Assembly: GCA_033764955.1 (NCBI GenBank) | Contig: JANRIL010000006.1 | Span: 49,710 to 113,709 of the forward strand | Source: Cyanobacteriota bacterium | GTDB lineage: Bacteria; Cyanobacteriota; Cyanobacteriia; Thermostichales; Thermostichaceae | Direction of reading: 5' to 3' | Length of the DNA: 64,000 bases | Shown here: positions 14,098 through 64,000 of the stretch, one piece after another | Layout of the letters: every line of letters begins with the position of its first letter | How positions within the stretch are numbered: the stretch's first letter is position 1 | The notes under the pieces: generated by a model | Databases searched by the model: none | The model's input: the letters and a program-made list of their open reading frames with translations, nothing else | What the model was told of the DNA's origin: nothing | Made by a program: the position numbers and the translations under genes

Positions 14098-14682
14098 TTA
14101 TCGCTGTCCTCCTAACTGCTGAATGCCTTGCTCAATCAGGGATCCCTGAATGGATTCGCTGACTCGTTGCGGGAGTTCTGCCTCCACTTGCGCCAGAGCA
14201 CGCAGGGCAATTTGCCGCCGCAATTCCTGAATGACCCGCTCCCGCTCGGTGGAAGCATCTTTCTCGGCGTTGGCTCGCATCCGCTCGATATCCCGCTCCG
14301 CTTGGGCAATCAACTCAGCCCGCAGCTTTTCGGCGTTAGCTTCCGCTTGCTGCTTGATGCGTTCCGCTTCCTGTTGAGCCTGGGCTAGCTTCTGCTGTTG
14401 ATCCGCCAATGCTTCCAAAGCAGTCTGTTTCTTTTGTTCCGCTTGCTCTAGTTCCGCTACAATCGCGGCTTTGCGTTTCGCCAACGCTTCTCCAATCACA
14501 TTGCGACCTAGGTAGATCAACAGCCCCAAAATGATGGCAATGTTAATCAGGTTGCTTCCCAAAATATCCGAACTGAAGCCAAACCCTGCCTCTTCAGCTT
14601 CTTCTAGTTCTTCTGCCAAATCGACGGCCTCCGCCGCCATCGGCATTATCCATAAGGGCATCACGCCTAGCAGTTGGATCAT
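14098..14682 (-). CDS. atpF: ATP synthase F0 subunit b
   Basis: [19 protein letters not shown] followed by coiled coil; operon position. Start may be 14640. Confidence 0.93.
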
Positions 14683-52962: not shown

Positions 52963-53103
52963 AGTTTTTTGACGGATTCGCAGTCATCTATAATAACAGC
53001 TTTGCCTAAGATTTTTCTAGAAGCTGCTCAACTCCAACAGACTCAGAGTGGACTCAGGTTGCCAGAGTAGAATGTCATCGACCGTTTGGGATCCCCCGTC
53101 ATC

Positions 53104-53742
53104 ATGAGTTTCACCCTTTATTTTTTGCGCCACGGCGAAACCACCTACAGTGCCAAAGGAGTCTACTGTGGATCTTTGGATCCCGATCTGACGGAGCAGG
53201 GTCAAGAAATGGCCGAGTCCTTTGCTGAAGCCTACCAAGGGATCCCTTGGTCAGGGGTGTTTGTCAGCCCCATGAAGCGCACGGTGGCCACGGCTCACCC
53301 CCTCTGTAATCGTCTGGGGTTACCCATGCAGATTCGCTCCGGTCTAAAGGAAATCGCCTATGGAGCCTGGGAAGGGCTGGCTCCTCACGAGGTGAATCAA
53401 TCGGATCACGATCCTTACATTCGTTGGCTAGCGGATCCAGGCTGGAATGCCCCCACTGGGGGAGAACGCGCCATTGATATTGCCCAACGCTCAGCTCAGG
53501 TGATTCAGGAGATTCAGCAGCTCTGCCCTGAGGGATCCGTTTTGGTAGTTTCCCACAAAGCTACCATCCGCATTATGCTCTGCCACCTGCTGGGCATTGA
53601 TGTGGGACGATTCCGGGATCGGATCGCTATGCCTGTTGGTTCTGTCAGCATCGTCAGCTTTTTGGAACATGGCCCGATTGTGCGCGCCATCGCCGACCGT
53701 GCCCATCTAGCTGAGCATCTGCGAACCCGTCCCGGCAATTAA
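53104..53742 (+). CDS. histidine phosphatase family protein
   Basis: LRHGET, SPMKRT, LKEIAYGAWEG, VVSH. Confidence 0.92.
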   Translation: MSFTLYFLRHGETTYSAKGVYCGSLDPDLTEQGQEMAESFAEAYQGIPWSGVFVSPMKRTVATAHPLCNRLGLPMQIRSGLKEIAYGAWEGLAPHEVNQSDHDPYIRWLADPGWNAPTGGERAIDIAQRSAQVIQEIQQLCPEGSVLVVSHKATIRIMLCHLLGIDVGRFRDRIAMPVGSVSIVSFLEHGPIVRAIADRAHLAEHLRTRPGN

Positions 53743-53761
53743 GCGGTAGGGGTGGGGGCTA

Positions 53762-53777
53762 GGGTCTGTCATCAATT
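53762..53777 (+). mobile_element. solo MITE/IS terminal inverted repeat (left end)
   Basis: TA|GGGTCTGTCATCAATT, similar to both ends of the element at 54709-54838. Confidence 0.7.
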
Positions 53778-53875
53778 CCATAACAACTGCGTTCACTTGC
53801 CAAACTGCCTGCAAGGAAGGCGATGTCTTGAAAAAACGTGGTGCTAGCTCGGTCAAGTGCAAGGCTTTGTTAGCC
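53778..53875 (-). mobile_element. attC: integron attC recombination site (98 bp)
   Basis: Minus strand R'' GGCTAAC, AAAGC, L'' CTTGCACT, TGACC...GGCA, L' AGTGAAC, GCAGTT, R' GTTATGG; two unpaired bases; the gene stop codon lies inside R''. Confidence 0.82.
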
Positions 53876-54448
53876 TCCCGTCGCCGCCTTTCGGGCAGAA
53901 CTGAGTCGGTCACGGGAGGCATCATCTGTTTCGTCGTGGTCGGCGCACATGGTGGCAAAGTCCGGTGTTCGTGCCAAATGATTCAGAACGCTTGATTCTT
54001 CGATTTGAACCAGTACGCGACAGGCCATGACCATGAACTGTTCACAGACCGATTCGTCCTCGTTGCGTGCATCTTCAATTTTCGTGCGAATCGGATTCCA
54101 ACCCTTTCGCCACTCATTCCAACGATTGATATTTCGGTAACCCCAGTCGCCAGGCGACCATCGGAGTTTTTCTTCAATCTCGGCCACAGTCTCTCTCGCA
54201 TACAAGTCGGGAGGCACTGCCGATCCCCGAATACTCTGCAAGTCATTCTTGTAGGTTTCGGCTCTATGGCGGAGTAGTGCGGGCGTATTCAAGCATAGGT
54301 TCACTTCGCCGTAGTTTGAGTCGCAATCTAGAAAAAGGCCGTAGAACTCCTCAGATCGATGCTGAGGGGCAAATGCTTCAATATCATCCCACACCAGAGC
54401 AAAAAGTGTTGCCTGAATAGGTCGCCAATCAATCATGGGGACAACCAT
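53870..54448 (-). CDS. DUF4303-like protein carried as an integron gene cassette
   Basis: EEFYGLFLD, LCLNT, LRWSPGDWGY, HDE pattern; flanked by attI-like and attC sites. Confidence 0.75.
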   Translation of the reverse strand: MVVPMIDWRPIQATLFALVWDDIEAFAPQHRSEEFYGLFLDCDSNYGEVNLCLNTPALLRHRAETYKNDLQSIRGSAVPPDLYARETVAEIEEKLRWSPGDWGYRNINRWNEWRKGWNPIRTKIEDARNEDESVCEQFMVMACRVLVQIEESSVLNHLARTPDFATMCADHDETDDASRDRLSSARKAATGG

Positions 54449-54457
54449 TATTTAGGA

Positions 54458-54476
54458 AGCTAACTGAGTATTAGAC
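54458..54476 (-). mobile_element. attI: attI-like simple site
   Basis: Minus strand L box GTCTAAT, 5 bp ACTCA, R box GTTAGCT, ending 9 bp before the cassette ATG. Confidence 0.65.
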
Positions 54477-54593
54477 AGCCAAACGCAGTTTAATACCCCT
54501 CTAATGTATATTAGGCCTGCGAGATCTATGCCATAACACCCCGATTTAGTGTTTTAGATGGCAAAGCTCAGCCATTTTCTAGAAGTAACCTCC

Positions 54594-54708
54594 ATGGCGT
54601 CACCGCCTAAGATTCCCAAAAAGCTGGTTAGAGACAGCAAGGATAGTCTCTACAATCATTGAACGTTAGCTCAGGATGCTATCCCGTGTGGATAAACCAT
54701 CATTCCTA
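54594..54708 (+). pseudogene. possible degraded 5' fragment of an integron integrase gene
   Basis: MASPPKIPKKL / LETAR / YPVWI across frameshifts, divergent from attI and cut by the MITE. Confidence 0.4.
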
Positions 54709-54838
54709 GGGCGCGTCATCAATTCGTTCTAGAAGTCTAGTCTTACAGCATAAGCGTTATTGCGCCCGCCCCAGAAAACAGGCTAGGGGCTGAAACAACT
54801 GCTCTATCAGTAACCTACAGCTAATTGATGACACCCCC
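54709..54838. mobile_element. 130-bp MITE with 16-bp imperfect TIRs and TA flanks
   Basis: TA|GGGCGCGTCATCAATT ... AATTGATGACACCCCC|TA (14/16 complementary); non-coding. Confidence 0.78.
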
Positions 54839-56469
54839 TAAGGCAAGACGGAAAGAGCCAGTTCCCCTGAGAGTGAGGCTAGCGGGGATCCCTCGACAGT
54901 CTGCATATCCTGTTGCAAAACAGCCACCAGTTGGTTGGTGGAAACCTCATATACCTGAGTCATCAGCTTGGGATAAAGACCAATCCCCACAATGGGGATA
55001 AGCAGACAGGCAATGATAAACACTTCGCGGGGTTCCGCATCAATCAAGGCTTCGTGCTCGGTTAACTCATGATTTTCGGGGCCAAAGAAAATTTGCCGCA
55101 ACATCGACAGCAAATAGATCGGAGTCAGGATCACTCCCACCGCCGCCAAAAAGACCATCGCCACCTTAAAGGGGCCACTGTAGGCATCACTGGTTGCCAT
55201 CCCCAAAAACACCATGATCTCCGCCACAAAGCCACTCATCCCCGGTAGCGCCAGAGAAGCCAGGGAGCAAACGGTAAACATCGAGAAGATCTTGGGCATT
55301 TTTAGGCCAACTCCCCCCATTTCCTCCAGTTCTAGGGTATGGGTGCGGTCGTAGGTGGCTCCCACCAAGAAAAAGAGACTGGCTCCGATTAGCCCGTGGG
55401 AGATCATCTGCAACATCGCTCCACTCATGCCAATTTCTGTCAAACAACCCATACCAATCAGGACAAAGCCCATGTGGCTAATCGACGAATAGGCAATCTT
55501 CCGCTTGAGGTTGCGCTGAGCAAAGGAGGTAAGTGCCGCAAAAATAATATTGACCACCCCCAAAACAATCAAAACGGGGGCAAAGATCAAATGGGCATCC
55601 GGTAACATCCCCACATTCATCCGCAGCAGGGCATATCCCCCCATTTTGAGAAGGATGCCAGCCAGCAACATGTGAACCGGAGCCGTTGCCTCGCCGTGGG
55701 CATCCGGCAACCATGTGTGCAGAGGAAAAATGGGCAATTTCACCCCATAAGCCACCAAAAAGCCCCCATACACCCATAGCTGAAAGACGAGGGGATAGGA
55801 CTTTTGGGAGAGCAGCGTCATGTTAAAGCTAATGGTGTCGCCATAAAAGGCCATAGCCAACGCCGCCACCAAAATAAACAGAGAACTGAGAGCGGTGTAG
55901 AGAATGAACTTGGTAGCGGCATAAAGGCGGTTTTTGCCCCCCCAAATCGACAGCAACAAATAGACTGGAATCAGTTCCAGTTCCCACATTAAGAAAAACA
56001 GCAACATATCCTGAACGGCAAAAACCCCAATCTGACCGCCATACATCGCCAACATCAGAAAGTAAAAAAGGCGGGGCTTCCAGGTAACAGGCCAAGAGGC
56101 CAGGATTGCCAGGGTGGTAATAAATCCGGTCAACAGAATCAAGGGCATCGACAAGCCATCCGCTCCTACCGACCAACTCAATCCGACCTGGGGCACCCAG
56201 CTATAGGTTTCCACCAGTTGCATTTCACTCTGGCCAGGATCATAGGCAACATAATAGCCGGCTACCAAAATCAGCAGATCCGTAATGCCGATCACTAGTG
56301 CAAACCAGCGAATCCGCTCGGCTAACTTTTGGGCATACGCGCGGCTCTGGGGATCCCCGGCAGGAGCCGGGATCAAGGGGATAAACAGAGACGCCACAAC
56401 GGGATAGAGAATCACCGTCGTCAGCCAGGGAAACTCACTCAGGGGTATCGGGAAGTCCATAAAAGCCAT
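54838..56469 (-). CDS. ndhD: NAD(P)H-quinone oxidoreductase subunit 4 (NdhD1-type)
   Basis: [50 protein letters not shown]. Confidence 0.95.
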
Positions 56470-56581
56470 CCTTCGGTTCAGTCTGCTCCGTTCACACACT
56501 CACACAAACTTTTACACACTATTCACACAAGACTCAGATTGCCTCATCTTGATTCCGATTGGGCCGCATTCCAAGCATCTC

Positions 56582-57331
56582 TTAAGGTAGCTGGTCGGGA
56601 TCCAACCCTTGACTCCGTAAATACGCCGCTAGTTTGTCCGCCCGTTGGCGCTCCTGCTCAGCTCGTTGGCGCTCCTGTTCAACTTTTTCTACCCCCCACG
56701 GCAACAGCTCGCCACTGGCATCCCACCAGCGCAGCCAATACCCCACTCGTCCCTCTTTTTCCCCCTGCCAGACCCCCAAAAATAACCCCATTGGTTCTAG
56801 CCAAAAGCGGTGCTGGCTATCTTTATCCAGAGGTTGATAGCGACCTGCTTCTAGTTGATGGACTTCCAGATGGCCGGTTGTGGGTTCAAACAGCACATAA
56901 AGCGGGATCCCCAAAACCTGCTCGTAGAAAAACCACTTGCCGGGGGGATAGGTGCGCTTGACGGAGTATTCCGTTCCCTCGGTTTCGGAGAGAAACTCCA
57001 TGACCAAGGCGGGTGTGGATCCCTCTAGGTGAGGGGTATAGCTGCGCCGATCTCCAGCCTGGGGTGGCACGTTGGGGATGAACACCCAGTCGGGAGCTTT
57101 GATCACCATTTGCTGGTTGAGGGTGGCACAGAGACCGAAGTTGGAGGCCACCAGCATCTCAGGGCGGAGATAGCCTGCTAACTCCAGAGCTTCCCGCAAG
57201 GCTCCCGCCAGCAGGGGCTGACCCGTGTTGTCCACTGGTTCCTCCTGCAAAGGAATGTCGTCAGGGAACTTCTGCCAGGTGATCTGAAGGGGCGGAGCAA
57301 ATTGCGCCACCGGTAGAGAACTGACAACCAT
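56582..57331 (-). CDS. Uma2-family endonuclease
   Basis: KAPDW, VMEFLS, GKWFFYEQVL, WLRWWD; EQERQRA tail. Confidence 0.9.
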   Translation of the reverse strand: MVVSSLPVAQFAPPLQITWQKFPDDIPLQEEPVDNTGQPLLAGALREALELAGYLRPEMLVASNFGLCATLNQQMVIKAPDWVFIPNVPPQAGDRRSYTPHLEGSTPALVMEFLSETEGTEYSVKRTYPPGKWFFYEQVLGIPLYVLFEPTTGHLEVHQLEAGRYQPLDKDSQHRFWLEPMGLFLGVWQGEKEGRVGYWLRWWDASGELLPWGVEKVEQERQRAEQERQRADKLAAYLRSQGLDPDQLP

Positions 57332-57414
57332 GACCTTCACCTCTCCGATATGAGCTGGAGCCGTTCAACTGGGGGAGAGCGGGTAGATGGTAAAAGGGGG
57401 ATCCCCCCACCCCT

Positions 57415-59574
57415 CTAAAAGCCGATGCCAGAAATCACCACCATCAGCACAATGGCACTAAAAATGACCAGGGCATAAAACTGGGCTTTGCCGCTCTCCA
57501 AATACTTCATGGTTTCCCCCGATACCACCGCCAGTAGGCCAGCCAAATTGACTACCCCATCCACAATGCGATTATCGACTTCCAGAGCTTCACGAGCCAC
57601 CAAGCGGGTACCTTTGACAAACAACCGCTCATAAATCTGGTCAAAATACCACTTGTTGAGGGAGAGGTCATAAAGAGGTTGGATGGCTTTGGCAATGGCT
57701 GCCGGATCTATCTGATGGCGCAGATACATCAAAATAGCCAAAGAAATGCCGATCAAGCCAATGCCAACGGAGCTACCGCCCATGATCAAAAATTCTGACC
57801 AATCAAACTCACCCGCTAAGACCTCCGCCCACTCCTGTGCCACCTCCGGCAAGATGGATCCCGTTTCGATCACTTCGGCCAGGGGAGGATGAATGAAAGC
57901 CTCAAAGTAGTTGGCAAAGGGAGTGCCCACTAAACCAATCAGCACAGAAGGGATCGCCAAGATCACTAAGGGCAGGGTCATCGACCAGGGAGACTCGTGG
58001 GGCTGGGAGGCATGGGCGTGTCCGTGGTCGGCATGGCTATCATGGCTGGAGCCATGTCCAGAATGGGGCTTCTCCTGAATGTCCATCGCCCCAGGTCCAA
58101 AGGCAGTGGATCCCGCTTGCGCTAGGGCAAAACTGAAGGCAGGCACCGGCTGACCCTGGCTATGGGCAACTTGCTCCTTGAGGAGATCGTTGGTGCCACG
58201 AAATTTGCCCTCAAAGGTGAGGAAGTACATCCGAAACATGTAGAAAGCCGTGATACCCGCTGTCAAAAAGCCAATTCCCCAGAGGGCGGGGTTATGCTCA
58301 AACACGGATCCTAAAATCTCATCCTTTGACCAAAAGCCGGCGAAGGGCGGGATCCCACAAATGGCCAATGTGCCGATCAAAAAGGTGGTGGCGGTAATCG
58401 GCATATAGCGGCGCAATCCTCCCATCACTCGCATATCTTGAGCCAGGGCAGGGTTGTGACCGACCACGGCTTCCATGCCATGAATGACGGAACCGGATCC
58501 CAAGAAGAGCATGGCTTTGAAATAAGCATGGGTCATCAGGTGAAATAGCCCCGCTCCATAGGCTCCGGATCCCATCGCCATCACCATATAGCCCAGCTGA
58601 GAAATGGTGGAATAGGCCAAGCCCTTTTTGATGTCGTTTTGGGTAATGGCGATGCTGGCTCCCAAAAAAGCGGTGGTTGCTCCCGTCCAGGCAATCGTCT
58701 CCATCGCTAAGGGCACTTGCTCAAACACCGGAAACATGCGGGCGATTAAAAAGACTCCAGCAGCCACCATGGTCGCGGCGTGGATCAAAGCCGAGATAGG
58801 GGTAGGTCCTTCCATGGCATCGGGCAACCAGACATGCAAGGGAAACTGGGCCGATTTGGCCACAGGCCCTAAAAACACCATGATGGCGAATAAAGCCACC
58901 AATCCAGCGCTGACCAAACCGGATTCCGTCGCCTGTCGCAAAACTTCTCCCATCCGCTCAAACTCAAACGTGCCCGTAATCCAATAGAGACCCAGCAAAC
59001 CCAAGAGCAGGCCAAAATCTCCGACACGGTTGGTGACAAACGCTTTTTGAGCGGCTTCGGCGGCAGCCGGACGATCATGCCAAAAGCCAATCAGCAGATA
59101 GGAACACATGCCCACCAGCTCCCAAAACACGTAGATCTGCACCAAGTTGGGGCTGATCACCAAACCCAACATGGAAGAACTAAAAAGACTGAGATAGGCA
59201 TAGAACCTGACATAACCAGGATCATGCGCCATGTAGCCATCGGTATAAATCATCACCAAGAAAGCTACGGTTGTCACCACCACCAGCATCACGGCAGCCA
59301 GATGATCCACCGAAAAGCCCATTTGCACCACAAAGGATCCGGCTTGTGCCCAGGTAAAGGTTTGCAGATAGTCGGCATGTCCCTGAACTTGGCTGACCAG
59401 AATGGCAAAGGCATGAACCATAGCGGCTCCTACCAAAAACACGCTGACAAAAGCCGCCAGAGAACGGTTGGCGCGAATCCAGGTATTGAAGGTGAGGATG
59501 CCGATCCCCAGCAGGAATGCTCCCAGCAAGGGATAGACCGGAATCAACCAGGCAAATTGATAGGCAAGTTCCAT
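57415..59574 (-). CDS. ndhF: NAD(P)H-quinone oxidoreductase subunit 5 (NdhF1-type)
   Basis: YQFAWLIP, YTDGYMAHDPGYVRF, KSAQFPLHVWLPDAMEGPTP, PHESP, NKWYFD. Confidence 0.96.
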   Translation of the reverse strand: MELAYQFAWLIPVYPLLGAFLLGIGILTFNTWIRANRSLAAFVSVFLVGAAMVHAFAILVSQVQGHADYLQTFTWAQAGSFVVQMGFSVDHLAAVMLVVVTTVAFLVMIYTDGYMAHDPGYVRFYAYLSLFSSSMLGLVISPNLVQIYVFWELVGMCSYLLIGFWHDRPAAAEAAQKAFVTNRVGDFGLLLGLLGLYWITGTFEFERMGEVLRQATESGLVSAGLVALFAIMVFLGPVAKSAQFPLHVWLPDAMEGPTPISALIHAATMVAAGVFLIARMFPVFEQVPLAMETIAWTGATTAFLGASIAITQNDIKKGLAYSTISQLGYMVMAMGSGAYGAGLFHLMTHAYFKAMLFLGSGSVIHGMEAVVGHNPALAQDMRVMGGLRRYMPITATTFLIGTLAICGIPPFAGFWSKDEILGSVFEHNPALWGIGFLTAGITAFYMFRMYFLTFEGKFRGTNDLLKEQVAHSQGQPVPAFSFALAQAGSTAFGPGAMDIQEKPHSGHGSSHDSHADHGHAHASQPHESPWSMTLPLVILAIPSVLIGLVGTPFANYFEAFIHPPLAEVIETGSILPEVAQEWAEVLAGEFDWSEFLIMGGSSVGIGLIGISLAILMYLRHQIDPAAIAKAIQPLYDLSLNKWYFDQIYERLFVKGTRLVAREALEVDNRIVDGVVNLAGLLAVVSGETMKYLESGKAQFYALVIFSAIVLMVVISGIGF

Positions 59575-61165: not shown

Positions 61166-63940
61166 TCAAGGCTGTTTTGGCGAGTCGGCCTGGGATGCTG
61201 GCACTCCATTCAAAATGCTGAAGCGCAGACCCACTTGATTTTCGCCGTTGGGCAGTCCTGTAATCCCCCCAAACCCATGCTGTCCGGCACTATTCCCCAC
61301 ATACAGATCCACCGCATAGAGCGAATTGCCAGAAGGCACCAGTTGCCGCACTCCGATTGTGTAAAGAGAAACGCTGCTGTCAATCGCTAGCGATTGTCCA
61401 GGAATTTCGGAGTCAATCAGTTGGTTTTGTCCACTAATAATGGGGGTATATTGCCCCATTAACTCGGTGGTTTCTCCCAGTTTCCAGGTGGTTCCCAGGG
61501 TGACACCCAAAATGTCATCGATCCCAATATATTGAGCAGGAATCACCAATTTTGGTGTCATGGAAAAGGTGACATTGGAATGGCGAGGTTGCAGGCGTAA
61601 AGGAACATCTCCATAGAGGGCATAGCCAGTAGGCACAGAGTCAGGACTACCGGAGGTATCGCGGAAGGTCAGTAATCCGGCGGTAATGGATGCGGACAAC
61701 CCTGGCTTGCCACGGTCAGGAATAACAGCTAGCCGCCCTAATAAATCTCGCTCAAACTCAAAGCTGGGATCCTCCGATCGCTCCAGAAAACTTTGGTGCA
61801 GAACCAGTTCCAGATCATCGAGCAATCCATAGCGAATCGTTTGATTAAAGCGATTTGGCCCCCCATCCAGCTCATAAATAATGCCATCCAACGGCAATGT
61901 CGTGCTGGGGAAACTGTTGAGTTGGGACAGGAATGCAGAACCATTTGGATAGGTTTGTCGCTTGACGATAGAGTATTTGCCTAACAAGTCTGGCAGATAG
62001 ACAAAATCGAGTCCTACGGCGGTGTCTCCTGCCGGTTGAGCTAACAAATTAGAGGGGGAAGCCGCGATTGGTCCGTAGCGATTAGTCAAATAAAGGTTTA
62101 CCCCTAAGCGGCTATTGGGGGAAAAGCGCACGCCCGCATTCCAAACCGGACGCCCGATAAATAAAGATCCACTGGCACTAGCATCAGCCGAGTTTTGCCC
62201 AGTCAAGATAGGTGTGTAGTCAGCCGAAAACTGTAAAAATTTGGCGAAATCATAGTCAAACCCTAAACCCAATCCGGCGACTGTGCCATAGTAGTCAAGC
62301 CGTTCTCCATCAAAGCCAATATCAGCTTCCAAAAAGGGATCCGGATCCCCTGACAAGATCGAGGCGGGCAGGCTATCTGGAAAAACACTGATTTGAGGAT
62401 TGAGGTGAAGGCGAGCCTTCGAAGTAAGCTGATAGGAAATAGGGGCAGCTAAACTAAAATGAATGGAATCATCAGTAGCCAATAATTCATTTGACTGAGA
62501 TAAGTTGTTGGTTCGCAGATAAACCTTACGGGCAGGAGAACTAAACCCCCTTTCAGCGGAGAAGGTTGTGGTAACCAAATTGGCATTAGGGATTTTGGCT
62601 CCCCCCACCAAAGCAAAACTAAGTTTTTCTCCCTTGTGAATTTGCCACTTAACTTGAGCTGAAAATCCTTGATCGTCAAAGTAGAGATCCTGCCCATCTC
62701 GCACAACATTTCTAAAGAATGTATCGTCTTTATTCTCAACACCAGCGGTAATTTGCAACTGATCCGTTAGACCATAATCCACCACGAAGCGGACATCATT
62801 GGAGCGGTTTTCTGCCCCACGGGAGCTGCGAAAATCGGCTGGGTTACTAAAAGAACTTCCCCCTACGGAGAGCATTAGTTCATTTTGTTGGAGGGCTTCC
62901 GCAGTCTCAAACCCAAACAACCGTGTCATCGGACGTTGCAAAGGGGACAAGTTTGCCTGACGGAGGGTGGGGGGCGGGGCGGGGTTGCTGGCGATAGGTT
63001 GCACTTCCGGGAAGGGCACCAGGGCATCCCGTTGTAAGGGAGGGGTGATATCACTCGCCCGTAACTGGCCGAGAAACGGTTGAGGCTGTAAAAGTTGATC
63101 GGTGATGGCCGGGGTATTGAGGGCAGCGGTGGGCAGATCGCTGATCGCAGGAGCCGTAAACGTAGGCTCGGTGCTGAGGGAGGAGGGCTGGTTCTGTTCG
63201 AGGGAAGGGGTAAGAATGACCGGAGCATCAGCCGGCTGGATCAAGTTAGCTTCTCCCGGCTGCGGAGGAGTCTGAGCGGAGGGATAGCTGGGGATCCCTG
63301 GCTTCGTAAATTCGATGGGTGGAATGGGGTTGCTAGCCGGAGGAGGGGATCCGGTCGCCTGGGTCGGAGGGGCGGGGGAAGTCGGGATGGATTTGTTGAG
63401 GGCTTTTTGCCGCACCTGCCGCAGCAACTCTTCCATGTAATCGGATGAGGGGGAGGACGGAGGAGGATCTGTTGTTACGCCTGGGGTGCTGGAAGGAACA
63501 ACATCACTGGAGGGGGTGGCTTGAGCAAGCAAGGGAGGGGGTGGCGTGTCAGACAGCACCGTTTTCATCTGTAGTCGCTCCCCCTTCCATTCTCCAATTT
63601 GTTGCTCCTCAGCAAGGGCTAAGAGGCGAGAAAAGGTCAAATCATCGGGTGGGTGGCTAGGGAGATCCTCTGGAGTTGAGAGATCTTTAGCAGGCAGCGG
63701 AGCCGTTTGGCCAGGTGCGAGGGAACTCCAGGTAATGGTGCTGGGGATCCCGGTATGTTGATATTGAGGCGGGAGCGCATAGCTGGCATATTGACTGTTG
63801 GGGGAAACTGTCGGGGTCTGGCTGACCACAATAGAAACATCCTCCGGTGCCGTAACTGCCCAAACACGGTCAGCGAGGACGGCTGTCGGTAGGATCCCCC
63901 AAGACAGGAGAGTCAGTGTCGATCGCGCACTCAAAGACAT
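61166..63940 (-). CDS. large exported protein: Pro/Ser-rich N-terminus plus two tandem outer-membrane beta-barrel-like repeats
   Basis: Signal-like N-terminus, alternating hydrophobic beta strands, internal duplication (YTPILTGQN / YTPIISGQN). Start may be 63988. Confidence 0.72.
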   Translation of the reverse strand: MSLSARSTLTLLSWGILPTAVLADRVWAVTAPEDVSIVVSQTPTVSPNSQYASYALPPQYQHTGIPSTITWSSLAPGQTAPLPAKDLSTPEDLPSHPPDDLTFSRLLALAEEQQIGEWKGERLQMKTVLSDTPPPPLLAQATPSSDVVPSSTPGVTTDPPPSSPSSDYMEELLRQVRQKALNKSIPTSPAPPTQATGSPPPASNPIPPIEFTKPGIPSYPSAQTPPQPGEANLIQPADAPVILTPSLEQNQPSSLSTEPTFTAPAISDLPTAALNTPAITDQLLQPQPFLGQLRASDITPPLQRDALVPFPEVQPIASNPAPPPTLRQANLSPLQRPMTRLFGFETAEALQQNELMLSVGGSSFSNPADFRSSRGAENRSNDVRFVVDYGLTDQLQITAGVENKDDTFFRNVVRDGQDLYFDDQGFSAQVKWQIHKGEKLSFALVGGAKIPNANLVTTTFSAERGFSSPARKVYLRTNNLSQSNELLATDDSIHFSLAAPISYQLTSKARLHLNPQISVFPDSLPASILSGDPDPFLEADIGFDGERLDYYGTVAGLGLGFDYDFAKFLQFSADYTPILTGQNSADASASGSLFIGRPVWNAGVRFSPNSRLGVNLYLTNRYGPIAASPSNLLAQPAGDTAVGLDFVYLPDLLGKYSIVKRQTYPNGSAFLSQLNSFPSTTLPLDGIIYELDGGPNRFNQTIRYGLLDDLELVLHQSFLERSEDPSFEFERDLLGRLAVIPDRGKPGLSASITAGLLTFRDTSGSPDSVPTGYALYGDVPLRLQPRHSNVTFSMTPKLVIPAQYIGIDDILGVTLGTTWKLGETTELMGQYTPIISGQNQLIDSEIPGQSLAIDSSVSLYTIGVRQLVPSGNSLYAVDLYVGNSAGQHGFGGITGLPNGENQVGLRFSILNGVPASQADSPKQP

Positions 63941-64000
63941 GAATGACTGAAACATCTGACCGCAACAAGCTACTGAATAGCTATTCACTATACAATATAT

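Follow-up and report, generated by a model that had tools for sequence, protein, structure and literature searches.

The segment at positions 53778-53875 on the minus strand of the window is very probably a genuine attC site, which forms the 3' end of a 680-bp gene cassette encoding a DUF4303-family protein; the cassette is located at an attI-like site within a 1.08-kb copy of an integron platform that has no intI gene (53759-54842). The window, i.e. the whole stretch of 64,000 nucleotides analyzed here, corresponds to positions 49710-113709 of contig C7 in the 3.8-Mb host genome (G000; 48 contigs), that of a hot-spring cyanobacterium of the Thermostichales type. The platform is bounded on both sides by inverted copies of a ~20-nt motif, between the genes for a histidine phosphatase and an NDH-1 subunit. 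Elements of this sort, in which one cassette and its attC sit in a platform without an integrase, are already known and rather unremarkable.

All boxes of an attC site are recognized in the minus strand read from 53875 to 53778, and they agree letter for letter with the layout of boxes, bulges and spacers that an initial annotation had proposed. The site, 98 nt in total, consists of R'' (GGCTAAC, 53875-53869), a 5-nt spacer (AAAGC, 53868-53864), L'' (CTT[G]CACTTG[A]CC, 53863-53851, with the extrahelical G at 53860 and the extrahelical A at 53853 in brackets), a variable part of 49 nt (53850-53802), L' (GGCAAGTGAAC, 53801-53791), a 6-nt spacer (GCAGTT, 53790-53785), and R' (GTTATGG, 53784-53778). 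The two spacers have the lengths given in that annotation. The two bulged bases are both located on the L'' arm, 6 bp apart; without them, 10 of the 11 L''/L' positions pair, and the one terminal mismatch described earlier is the outermost C.C. Pairing of R'' with R' is limited to the 4 bp of TAAC/GTTA. The crossover point is G(53784)|TT, and the bottom (recombining) strand is the plus strand of the window, where the bulged bases are C and T. The core consensus of attC sites is RYYYAAC for R'' and GTTRRRY for R'. In GGCTAAC/GTTATGG the AAC and GTT are exact, and each heptamer is one or two positions off this degenerate consensus, like many local sites. The TAA at 53872-53870, inside R'', ends the ORF 53870-54448 (minus strand), as had been pointed out, and the attC sits between this DUF4303 ORF and a convergent gene of the histidine phosphatase family (53086-53742, plus strand; Pfam His_Phos_1, E 6e-56). 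The features listed for attC sites in PMC11641012 include an imperfect L''/L' inverted repeat with two or three bases outside the helix, a central spacer that stays unpaired and a terminal structure that varies; the L helix, bulges, spacers and variable part of 53778-53875 (minus strand) all have this form.

The host genome was scanned with a pattern grammar (AAC, 4-6 nt, an L'' of 3 nt, bulge, 6 nt, bulge and 2 nt, a loop, L', 5-7 nt and GTT, with at least 10 of 11 pairs). In its loose form this grammar found 55 sites in the real genome vs 56 in the reversed genome and is therefore not discriminating by itself. With TAAC and GTTA required, there were 23 sites in the real genome vs 5 in the reversed one, and with 5/6 spacers required as well, 11 vs 1; five Markov-1 genomes gave 6-15, 0-1 and 0-1 sites at the three successive levels. 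The attC pattern by itself is moderately unlikely, at about one occurrence per genome by chance, and it is the covariance model together with the comparative evidence that lifts 53778-53875 above chance.

The covariance model (R1) was built from an alignment of 31 clear attC sites of the same genome (A1), taken from the grammar scan with the candidate left out. The R and L helices of A1 are paired in 88% of cells, 12 pairs carry changes in both partners, and none of 500 shuffles attained the covariation score, for sites pre-chosen by a pairing grammar. As the candidate also satisfies this grammar, the structural part of R1 is not fully independent of it. When R1 was run without filters over the window, the best match was 53778-53875 on the minus strand, covering model positions 1-86 end to end (26.2 bits, E 4.8e-5); the covariance-model check proposed in the initial annotation, carried out here with a model from the host's own genome, returned the exact coordinates and strand. 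The bulges occupy the same alignment columns as in the 31 local attCs, and the top-strand G and A agree with the local consensus (column 17 mostly G, column 24 an invariant A). The match is strand-specific: real attCs score 12-20 bits on their wrong strand in R1, and the candidate has no wrong-strand match at E<=10. Genome-wide, the candidate has an E-value of 0.0029 and ranks 72nd of 79 matches at E<=1, R1 E-values being rough; its 26.2 bits are low for this genome, where most local attCs score 40-88 bits. Two matches below it, at 23.4 and 21.0 bits, have contextual support, one being inside an array (C38:55273) and the other followed by the end motif described below (C23:45262). The Rfam database has no attC family and gave nothing at the site; elsewhere in the window it recognized only two tRNAs and an L10 leader. 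The second-best R1 match in the window, 8 kb off at 61979-62041 (plus strand; 15.4 bits, E 0.07), has good R''/R' ends and a largely deleted L region within the long ORF 61166-63988 (minus strand), and is probably due to chance.

The minimum free energy (MFE) structure of the plus strand (-12.9 kcal/mol, z -0.42 vs shuffles) pairs neither box, and that of the minus strand (z +0.68 vs shuffles) pairs only the L boxes. With DNA energy parameters and pairing of the AAC/GTT triplets imposed on the bottom strand, the attC-type fold was obtained at -12.2 kcal/mol, 0.7 above the MFE, with both boxes paired and both bulges present. The expectation that the plus strand would fold with R''/R' and L''/L' paired holds for this near-optimal structure and fails for the plain MFE. 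The pfold of the candidate is 0.30 vs a median of 0.15 (interquartile range ~0.012-0.75) for the 71 better-scoring local attCs, and by this prediction the candidate is as foldable as the neighbouring attCs of the genome. The lack of both a model match and box pairing had been named as grounds for giving up the attC reading; instead, the R1 match and the pfold of 0.30 were found.

The cassette ORF encodes a protein of 188 aa (53870-54436, minus strand), which is assigned to the DUF4303 family by Pfam (PF14136; E 4.8e-7, 30 bits vs a cut-off of 23) and by its homologues, seven metagenome proteins of 38-74% identity that all belong to PF14136. The longest ORF starts at ATG 54448, and the homologues conserve only ATG 54436, with the start context GTCCCCATG; ATG 54448 is peculiar to the window and arose by window-specific substitutions in the 5' leader of the cassette. 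Searches bearing on cargo function gave no NCBIfam, PADLOC or PDB sequence match for the 188-aa protein. The host genome encodes no paralogue of the DUF4303 ORF, a single-protein scan of a collection of genome contigs with the cassette protein gave no homologue, and the same query found none in 400 other genomes of the class. A promoter scan of the minus strand between 53600 and 55000 gave no sigma-70-like promoter, and a terminator scan gave no T-run terminator at the attC. The NDH-1 gene is located upstream of the cassette on the same strand and is a possible source of read-through; because no promoter is predicted, expression of the cassette gene would need such read-through and, if it occurs, probably proceeds in this way.

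The boundaries of the cassette were established from counterparts on other contigs. An alignment-based scan gave 19 homologue loci (16 from metagenomes and 3 from genomes), in which R1 recognized 10 attC sites at E<=6.4e-5, and in 6 of the 19 an attC abuts the homologous gene. In L057, L059, L065 and L066 the attC is downstream and overlaps the stop codon, beginning 1-3 nt before the matched gene end, and in L054 and L055 it is directly upstream, at a distance of 12-15 nt from the gene; L065 and L066 each contain an array of three attCs. The other cases include loci cut by contig ends (L054 downstream, L058) and loci with no R1 match. At the 3' boundary, the attC of L059 is identical to the candidate at 73 of 97 positions over the whole length, variable part included, and the homology stops right after GTT. 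The attC of L057 is identical at 54 of 97 positions and keeps the L helix via four pairs changed on both sides (reached in 2 of 500 shuffles). At the 5' boundary, GTTAGCTTCC followed by the conserved start context is present in all five loci compared (the window, L054, L055, L056 and L057), and the sequence upstream of GTTAGCTTCC is unrelated between them. The paralogue of the attI-side segment on contig C12 of the host genome diverges from the window at the same GTT. Since homology ends at G|TT on both sides, the integrated cassette is delimited to 680 bp (54463-53784, minus strand); it begins with the TT that follows the G at 54464 on the attI side and ends with the G of R'. The cassette starts with TTAGCT, and five of these six bases are complementary to GGCTAA of R'', which is what a unit that closes into a circle via its attC should show.

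A comparison with 30 relatives from other genera found no cassette-free allele, and the rplS, phosphatase and NDH genes are not syntenic in them. The C12 copy was considered as an empty site and rejected, the sequence after its GTT being unrelated to the sequence after the attC (local score 17 vs a shuffle mean of 17.1). Among public sequencing runs, one metagenome DNA run with a small share (0.09) contained a 246-nt contig identical to 53574-53819; no contig joined across the cassette was found in the public runs, and no RNA run was listed as containing the locus. A joint skipping 54725-54818 was also present in the public runs and probably comes from other copies of the platform. In L057 (positions 340-366), the sequence preceding GTTAGCT, ...AATAAAATACTCG, resembles the L box of the attI-like site of the window, ...TCTAATACTCA, and on this likeness the L057 cassette may also be located at an attI.

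An attC that is genuine by descent could nevertheless be a dead relic by now, too diverged and too weakly paired in its R box to be used by the host IntI. We regard this as the most serious alternative, possible though rather doubtful. The low R1 score relative to most local sites is in its favour, as are the R box of only four pairs and an MFE structure that is not attC-like; the cassette, with no homologues in the 400 other genomes of the class, also appears foreign, and its attC would therefore have evolved with another integrase. Against it, the AAC/GTT triplets, both bulged bases and both spacers are intact, the pfold is above the local median, and of the 31 bona fide local attCs, 13-19 likewise lack pairing at the three outer R positions. 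Integron integrases tolerate very diverse attC sequences if the folded structure is kept, which also counts against a relic. It is plausible that the attC is still recombinogenic, and we give about an even chance that it is still a substrate.

The attI located beside the intact intI gene on contig C9 has the structure GTATTA-N17-TAATAC-ATA-GTTAGGC. A site with the same box spacing, GTATTA-N17-TAATAC-TCA-G|TTAGCT, was identified in the window by its match to this attI (54458-54496, minus strand; GTT at 54464-54462). When the C9 39-mer was slid ungapped over the window and over 7.6 million genome positions, this site was the best position in the window, with 26 of 39 matches (next best, 22), and only 9 of the 7.6 million positions reached at least 26. 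Seven of the nine are attI or attI-like sites on C9, C11, C38 and in the window, and the other two are on C12 and, unexplained, on C23. Another attI-like sequence on C12, a palindrome that matches the C9 attI on either strand (14349-14393; 25/39), is located 170 bp past the first attI-like site of that contig and is followed by two reverse-oriented ORFs and then by the first cassette ORF.

Upstream of the crossover, the platform contains a non-coding segment of 244 bp (54467-54710, minus strand), recognized by homology to C12, C4 and C30; it is 89% identical to C12:13941-14181 and 68% identical to C4:185-342 and C30:387-523. The 3' end of this segment is attI-like. The ~150 bp of its distal part show homology to the intI 3' flank, and this homology, to the copies on C4, C30 and C38, extends from there to 54842. 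Of the components of a complete integron, the attI at the array head is represented by the attI-like 39-mer, on sequence likeness, and the adjacent intI is absent, with no match to TIGR02249 on the whole contig C7. There is no intI in the locus because the crossover and the stop codon of the NDH-1 gene (54838-56499, minus strand; NdhD/NuoM type, Pfam Proton_antipo_M, E 3e-63) are only ~375 bp apart. The NdhD-type protein is 82-89% identical to proteins of Thermostichus and hot-spring Synechococcus, and its C-terminal length is similar to that in relatives and uninformative about an insertion. On the same strand, a Uma2-family gene with a putative restriction endonuclease fold (56582-57340) is located between this NDH-1 antiporter-like gene and another one (57415-59574).

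Judged by these homologies, the locus 53759-54842 looks like a platform of the C38/C9 type from which intI and its promoter region have been deleted. An intermediate state is present at C11:33766-37955, which comprises an end motif, the intI 3' flank, ~30 N-terminal intI codons, the intergenic region, an attI with a mutated GTT (33/39 to the C9 attI), two cassettes and the other end motif. On C12, 1.4 kb containing ORFs in reverse orientation separate the attI-like segment from the first cassette ORF, so that only the break in homology speaks for the use of this attI type.

The cassette side of the platform ends with the array-end sequence GTTATGGAATTGATGACAGACC-CTAG (53759-53784, minus strand), which overlaps R' and constitutes the outer boundary. 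A 22-mer of this array end (<=3 mismatches) occurs 8 times in the genome and never in the reversed control; of 25 relatives searched, 24 lack it and one has a 3-mismatch match. In 6 of 6 cases with an R1-supported attC, the array-end motif starts at R' of the last attC of a cluster (C4:15476, C11:33782, C23:45262, C27:18825, C27:112540 and the candidate), and the R' junction GTTATGGAATTGATGACAGACC of the candidate is in register with the five other model-supported terminal attCs. The array end may represent the original right half of attI, pushed outward by successive insertions.

The opposite outer boundary, which is on the intI side in full copies, is an inverted copy of the motif, AATTGATGACACCCCCTAAG (54823-54842, plus strand), overlapping the NDH stop codon TAG (54838-54840). 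A third, internal copy, GAATTGATGACGCGCCCTAGG (54705-54725, minus strand), is located in a ~70-bp stretch that is absent from the C12 and C4 copies. On its intI side the platform terminates with the inverted core (AATTGATGACA...CTAAG), and this motif was also found at C38:64788, C4:395, C4:64650, C4:26441, C11:37937, C12:13892 (minus strand), C28:4947 and C28:133630. Overall, the ~20-nt motif AATTGATGACA-N3-4-CYTAR marks both outer platform ends in inverted orientation, with copies in the window at 53759-53777, 54705-54725 and 54823-54842, and elsewhere in the genome at C4:395, C4:15557, C11:33767, C11:37937, C12:13892, C23:45247, C27:18905, C27:112525, C28:4947, C28:133630 and C38:64780. There are 8 cassette-side ends, at least 9 intI-side ends and two fully bounded platform copies; at these two, inspection by eye revealed no convincing target-site duplications. 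The distribution of the motif suggests that the repeat-bounded platform has multiplied as a unit in the genome.

Loot et al. (preprint 10.1101/2022.09.11.507474) use the name SALIN for an isolated cassette, in which a CDS is accompanied by one attC and neither an integrase nor a further att site lies in the vicinity; they show insertion at GWT 'attG' sites and explain such elements by it. The candidate could accordingly be a genuine attC that entered an isolated secondary site by attC x attG recombination, rather than at the attI of a degraded platform. The single attC, a contig with no intI and the GTT at both junctions agree with this, and SALINs are reported in the same preprint to be common, with IntI inserting cassettes at GWT sites across genomes. 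We nevertheless consider an attG insertion improbable: the upstream junction shows the same GTATTA-N17-TAATAC-N3-GTTAG arrangement as the attI adjacent to an intact intI (26/39), it is part of the 244-bp segment with homology to intI flanks that has another copy beside a cassette array on C12, and the downstream junction is the conserved sequence that ends five other clusters. The attI-like site and the intI-flank remnants therefore led us to read the locus as an integron that has lost intI. A chance inverted repeat or a bidirectional terminator, for which one could cite the position between convergent genes, the equal frequency of the loose grammar in the reversed and real genomes and a fold no more stable than shuffles, is very improbable in view of the full-length, strand-specific R1 match, the orthologous cassettes with a homologous attC and homology delimited by G|TT, the conserved R' junction common to other attCs and the absence of a predicted T-run terminator at the site. 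The canonical attC proposed from the sequence in the initial annotation is sustained by the R1 match, the presence of IntI in the host, the orthologous cassettes with their homologous attC, the R' junction and the attI-like site.

Two intact intI genes above the TIGR02249 cut-off were found in the host genome (C9:19-960, minus strand, and C38:63588-64529, plus strand), along with at least four intI fragments (on C36, C4, C30 and C38). Arrays of an 86-88-nt repeat with attC anatomy adjoin both intact genes, and in both copies intI is divergent from attI. In total, R1 gave 70 matches at E<=1e-4, spread over more than 20 contigs; C9:1-8500, C38:54700-64800, C12:13900-19500 and C11:33766-37955 are examples of integron regions. 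Several contigs begin or end within intI or attC sequence, and the assembly therefore breaks at these repeats. The same attC family was recognized by R1 in 22 of 25 relatives and an IntI above the cut-off in 12 of 25, the host genome having the highest R1 match count (70) among the relatives searched. The candidate belongs to a minority subtype of 98 nt with an L'' of the TGCACTTGACC type, of which the grammar scan showed only two other local members (C11:174-269 and C34:27590-27661); the nearest relatives of the candidate attC are on foreign metagenome contigs. With their homogeneous local attC family of 86-88 nt, cassettes with genes of unknown function and intI divergent from attI, the integrons of the host resemble the sedentary chromosomal integrons of Cyanobacteria and other non-proteobacterial phyla, from which the candidate differs as a 98-nt attC of a minority subtype.

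In the classification of Cury et al. 2016 (PMC4889954), a CALIN has at least two attCs within 4 kb and no intI; 431 single attC sites were set aside there as possible false positives, and attC false positives were estimated at 0.03-0.72 per Mb. The window contains one R1 match with E<0.01, fewer than a CALIN would need. With its single attC and no intI, the locus also has two of the features of a SALIN, and the attI-like site adjoining the cassette is at odds with the third, the absence of any other att site; a tool run with --calin-threshold 1 would label it SALIN. It resembles both SALINs and CALINs in having one attC with a cassette ORF, no intI nearby and IntI encoded elsewhere in the genome, and differs in having an attI-like site and remnants of intI flanks next to the cassette. 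As possible origins of CALINs, Cury et al. name rearrangement, insertion at secondary sites and loss of intI, the last of which fits the appearance of this locus; recognizable intI pseudogenes were reported near only 15 of 279 CALINs (PMC4889954).

An attC acts as a folded single strand, and IntI cleaves in the AAC of the R box and prefers the bottom strand (PMC11641012). For an integron that has lost its own intI, the following working is proposed. The plus strand of the window, when single-stranded, would fold with R''/R' and L''/L' paired and the bulged C and T turned out; IntI encoded on C9 or C38 would then bind in trans and cleave in the AAC of the R box. Recombination with the adjacent attI-like site would excise the cassette as a 680-bp circle and leave a cassette-free junction in which the left part of attI is joined to TTATGGAATTG...; alternatively, the cassette would be moved to another attI or attC. 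The action of IntI in trans on this attC is what we infer from the two intact integrase genes of the host.

Single attCs are normally discarded as possible false positives, and here one was validated computationally: the same gene and attC recur in other contexts, and at both ends their homology stops at G|TT. The locus documents a cassette at an attI without an integrase in a cyanobacterial lineage whose integrons have been little studied, in a host whose dispersed attC sites are unusually numerous (about 70 in 3.8 Mb).

The class 1 integron platform in Tn402-type transposons is bounded by the inverted repeats IRi and IRt. The type of platform represented in the window is similar in that short inverted repeats delimit it, past the last cassette on one side and past the 3' end of intI on the other, and that it occurs in several copies, many with intI deleted; it differs in that the repeat sequence is unrelated and no target-site duplication is evident. 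Platforms of this type may be mobile as a unit. Mobility of the repeat-bounded copies would explain the scatter of integrase-less attC clusters, a matter left open in the accessible portions of PMC4889954 and 10.1101/2022.09.11.507474. We tentatively suggest, as a possibility well short of even, that these copies are MITE-like satellite integrons: small non-autonomous units, each made up of an attI, a single cassette or a few of them, and a conserved end, enclosed by inverted repeats of ~20 nt, with intI usually deleted. They would have multiplied in this one genome, be missing from 24 of 25 related genomes and be served in trans by the two intact integrases. If this were true, sites of cassette capture would be spread around a chromosome.

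The intI 3' flanks on C4 (140-320) and C30 (reverse, about 430-590) contain a ~190-bp insertion relative to C38, located between direct GGGATCCC(C)T repeats and shared by the window and C12 copies. The GGGATCCC palindrome is frequent in the genome, and the insert looks like a small mobile insertion at one of its copies.
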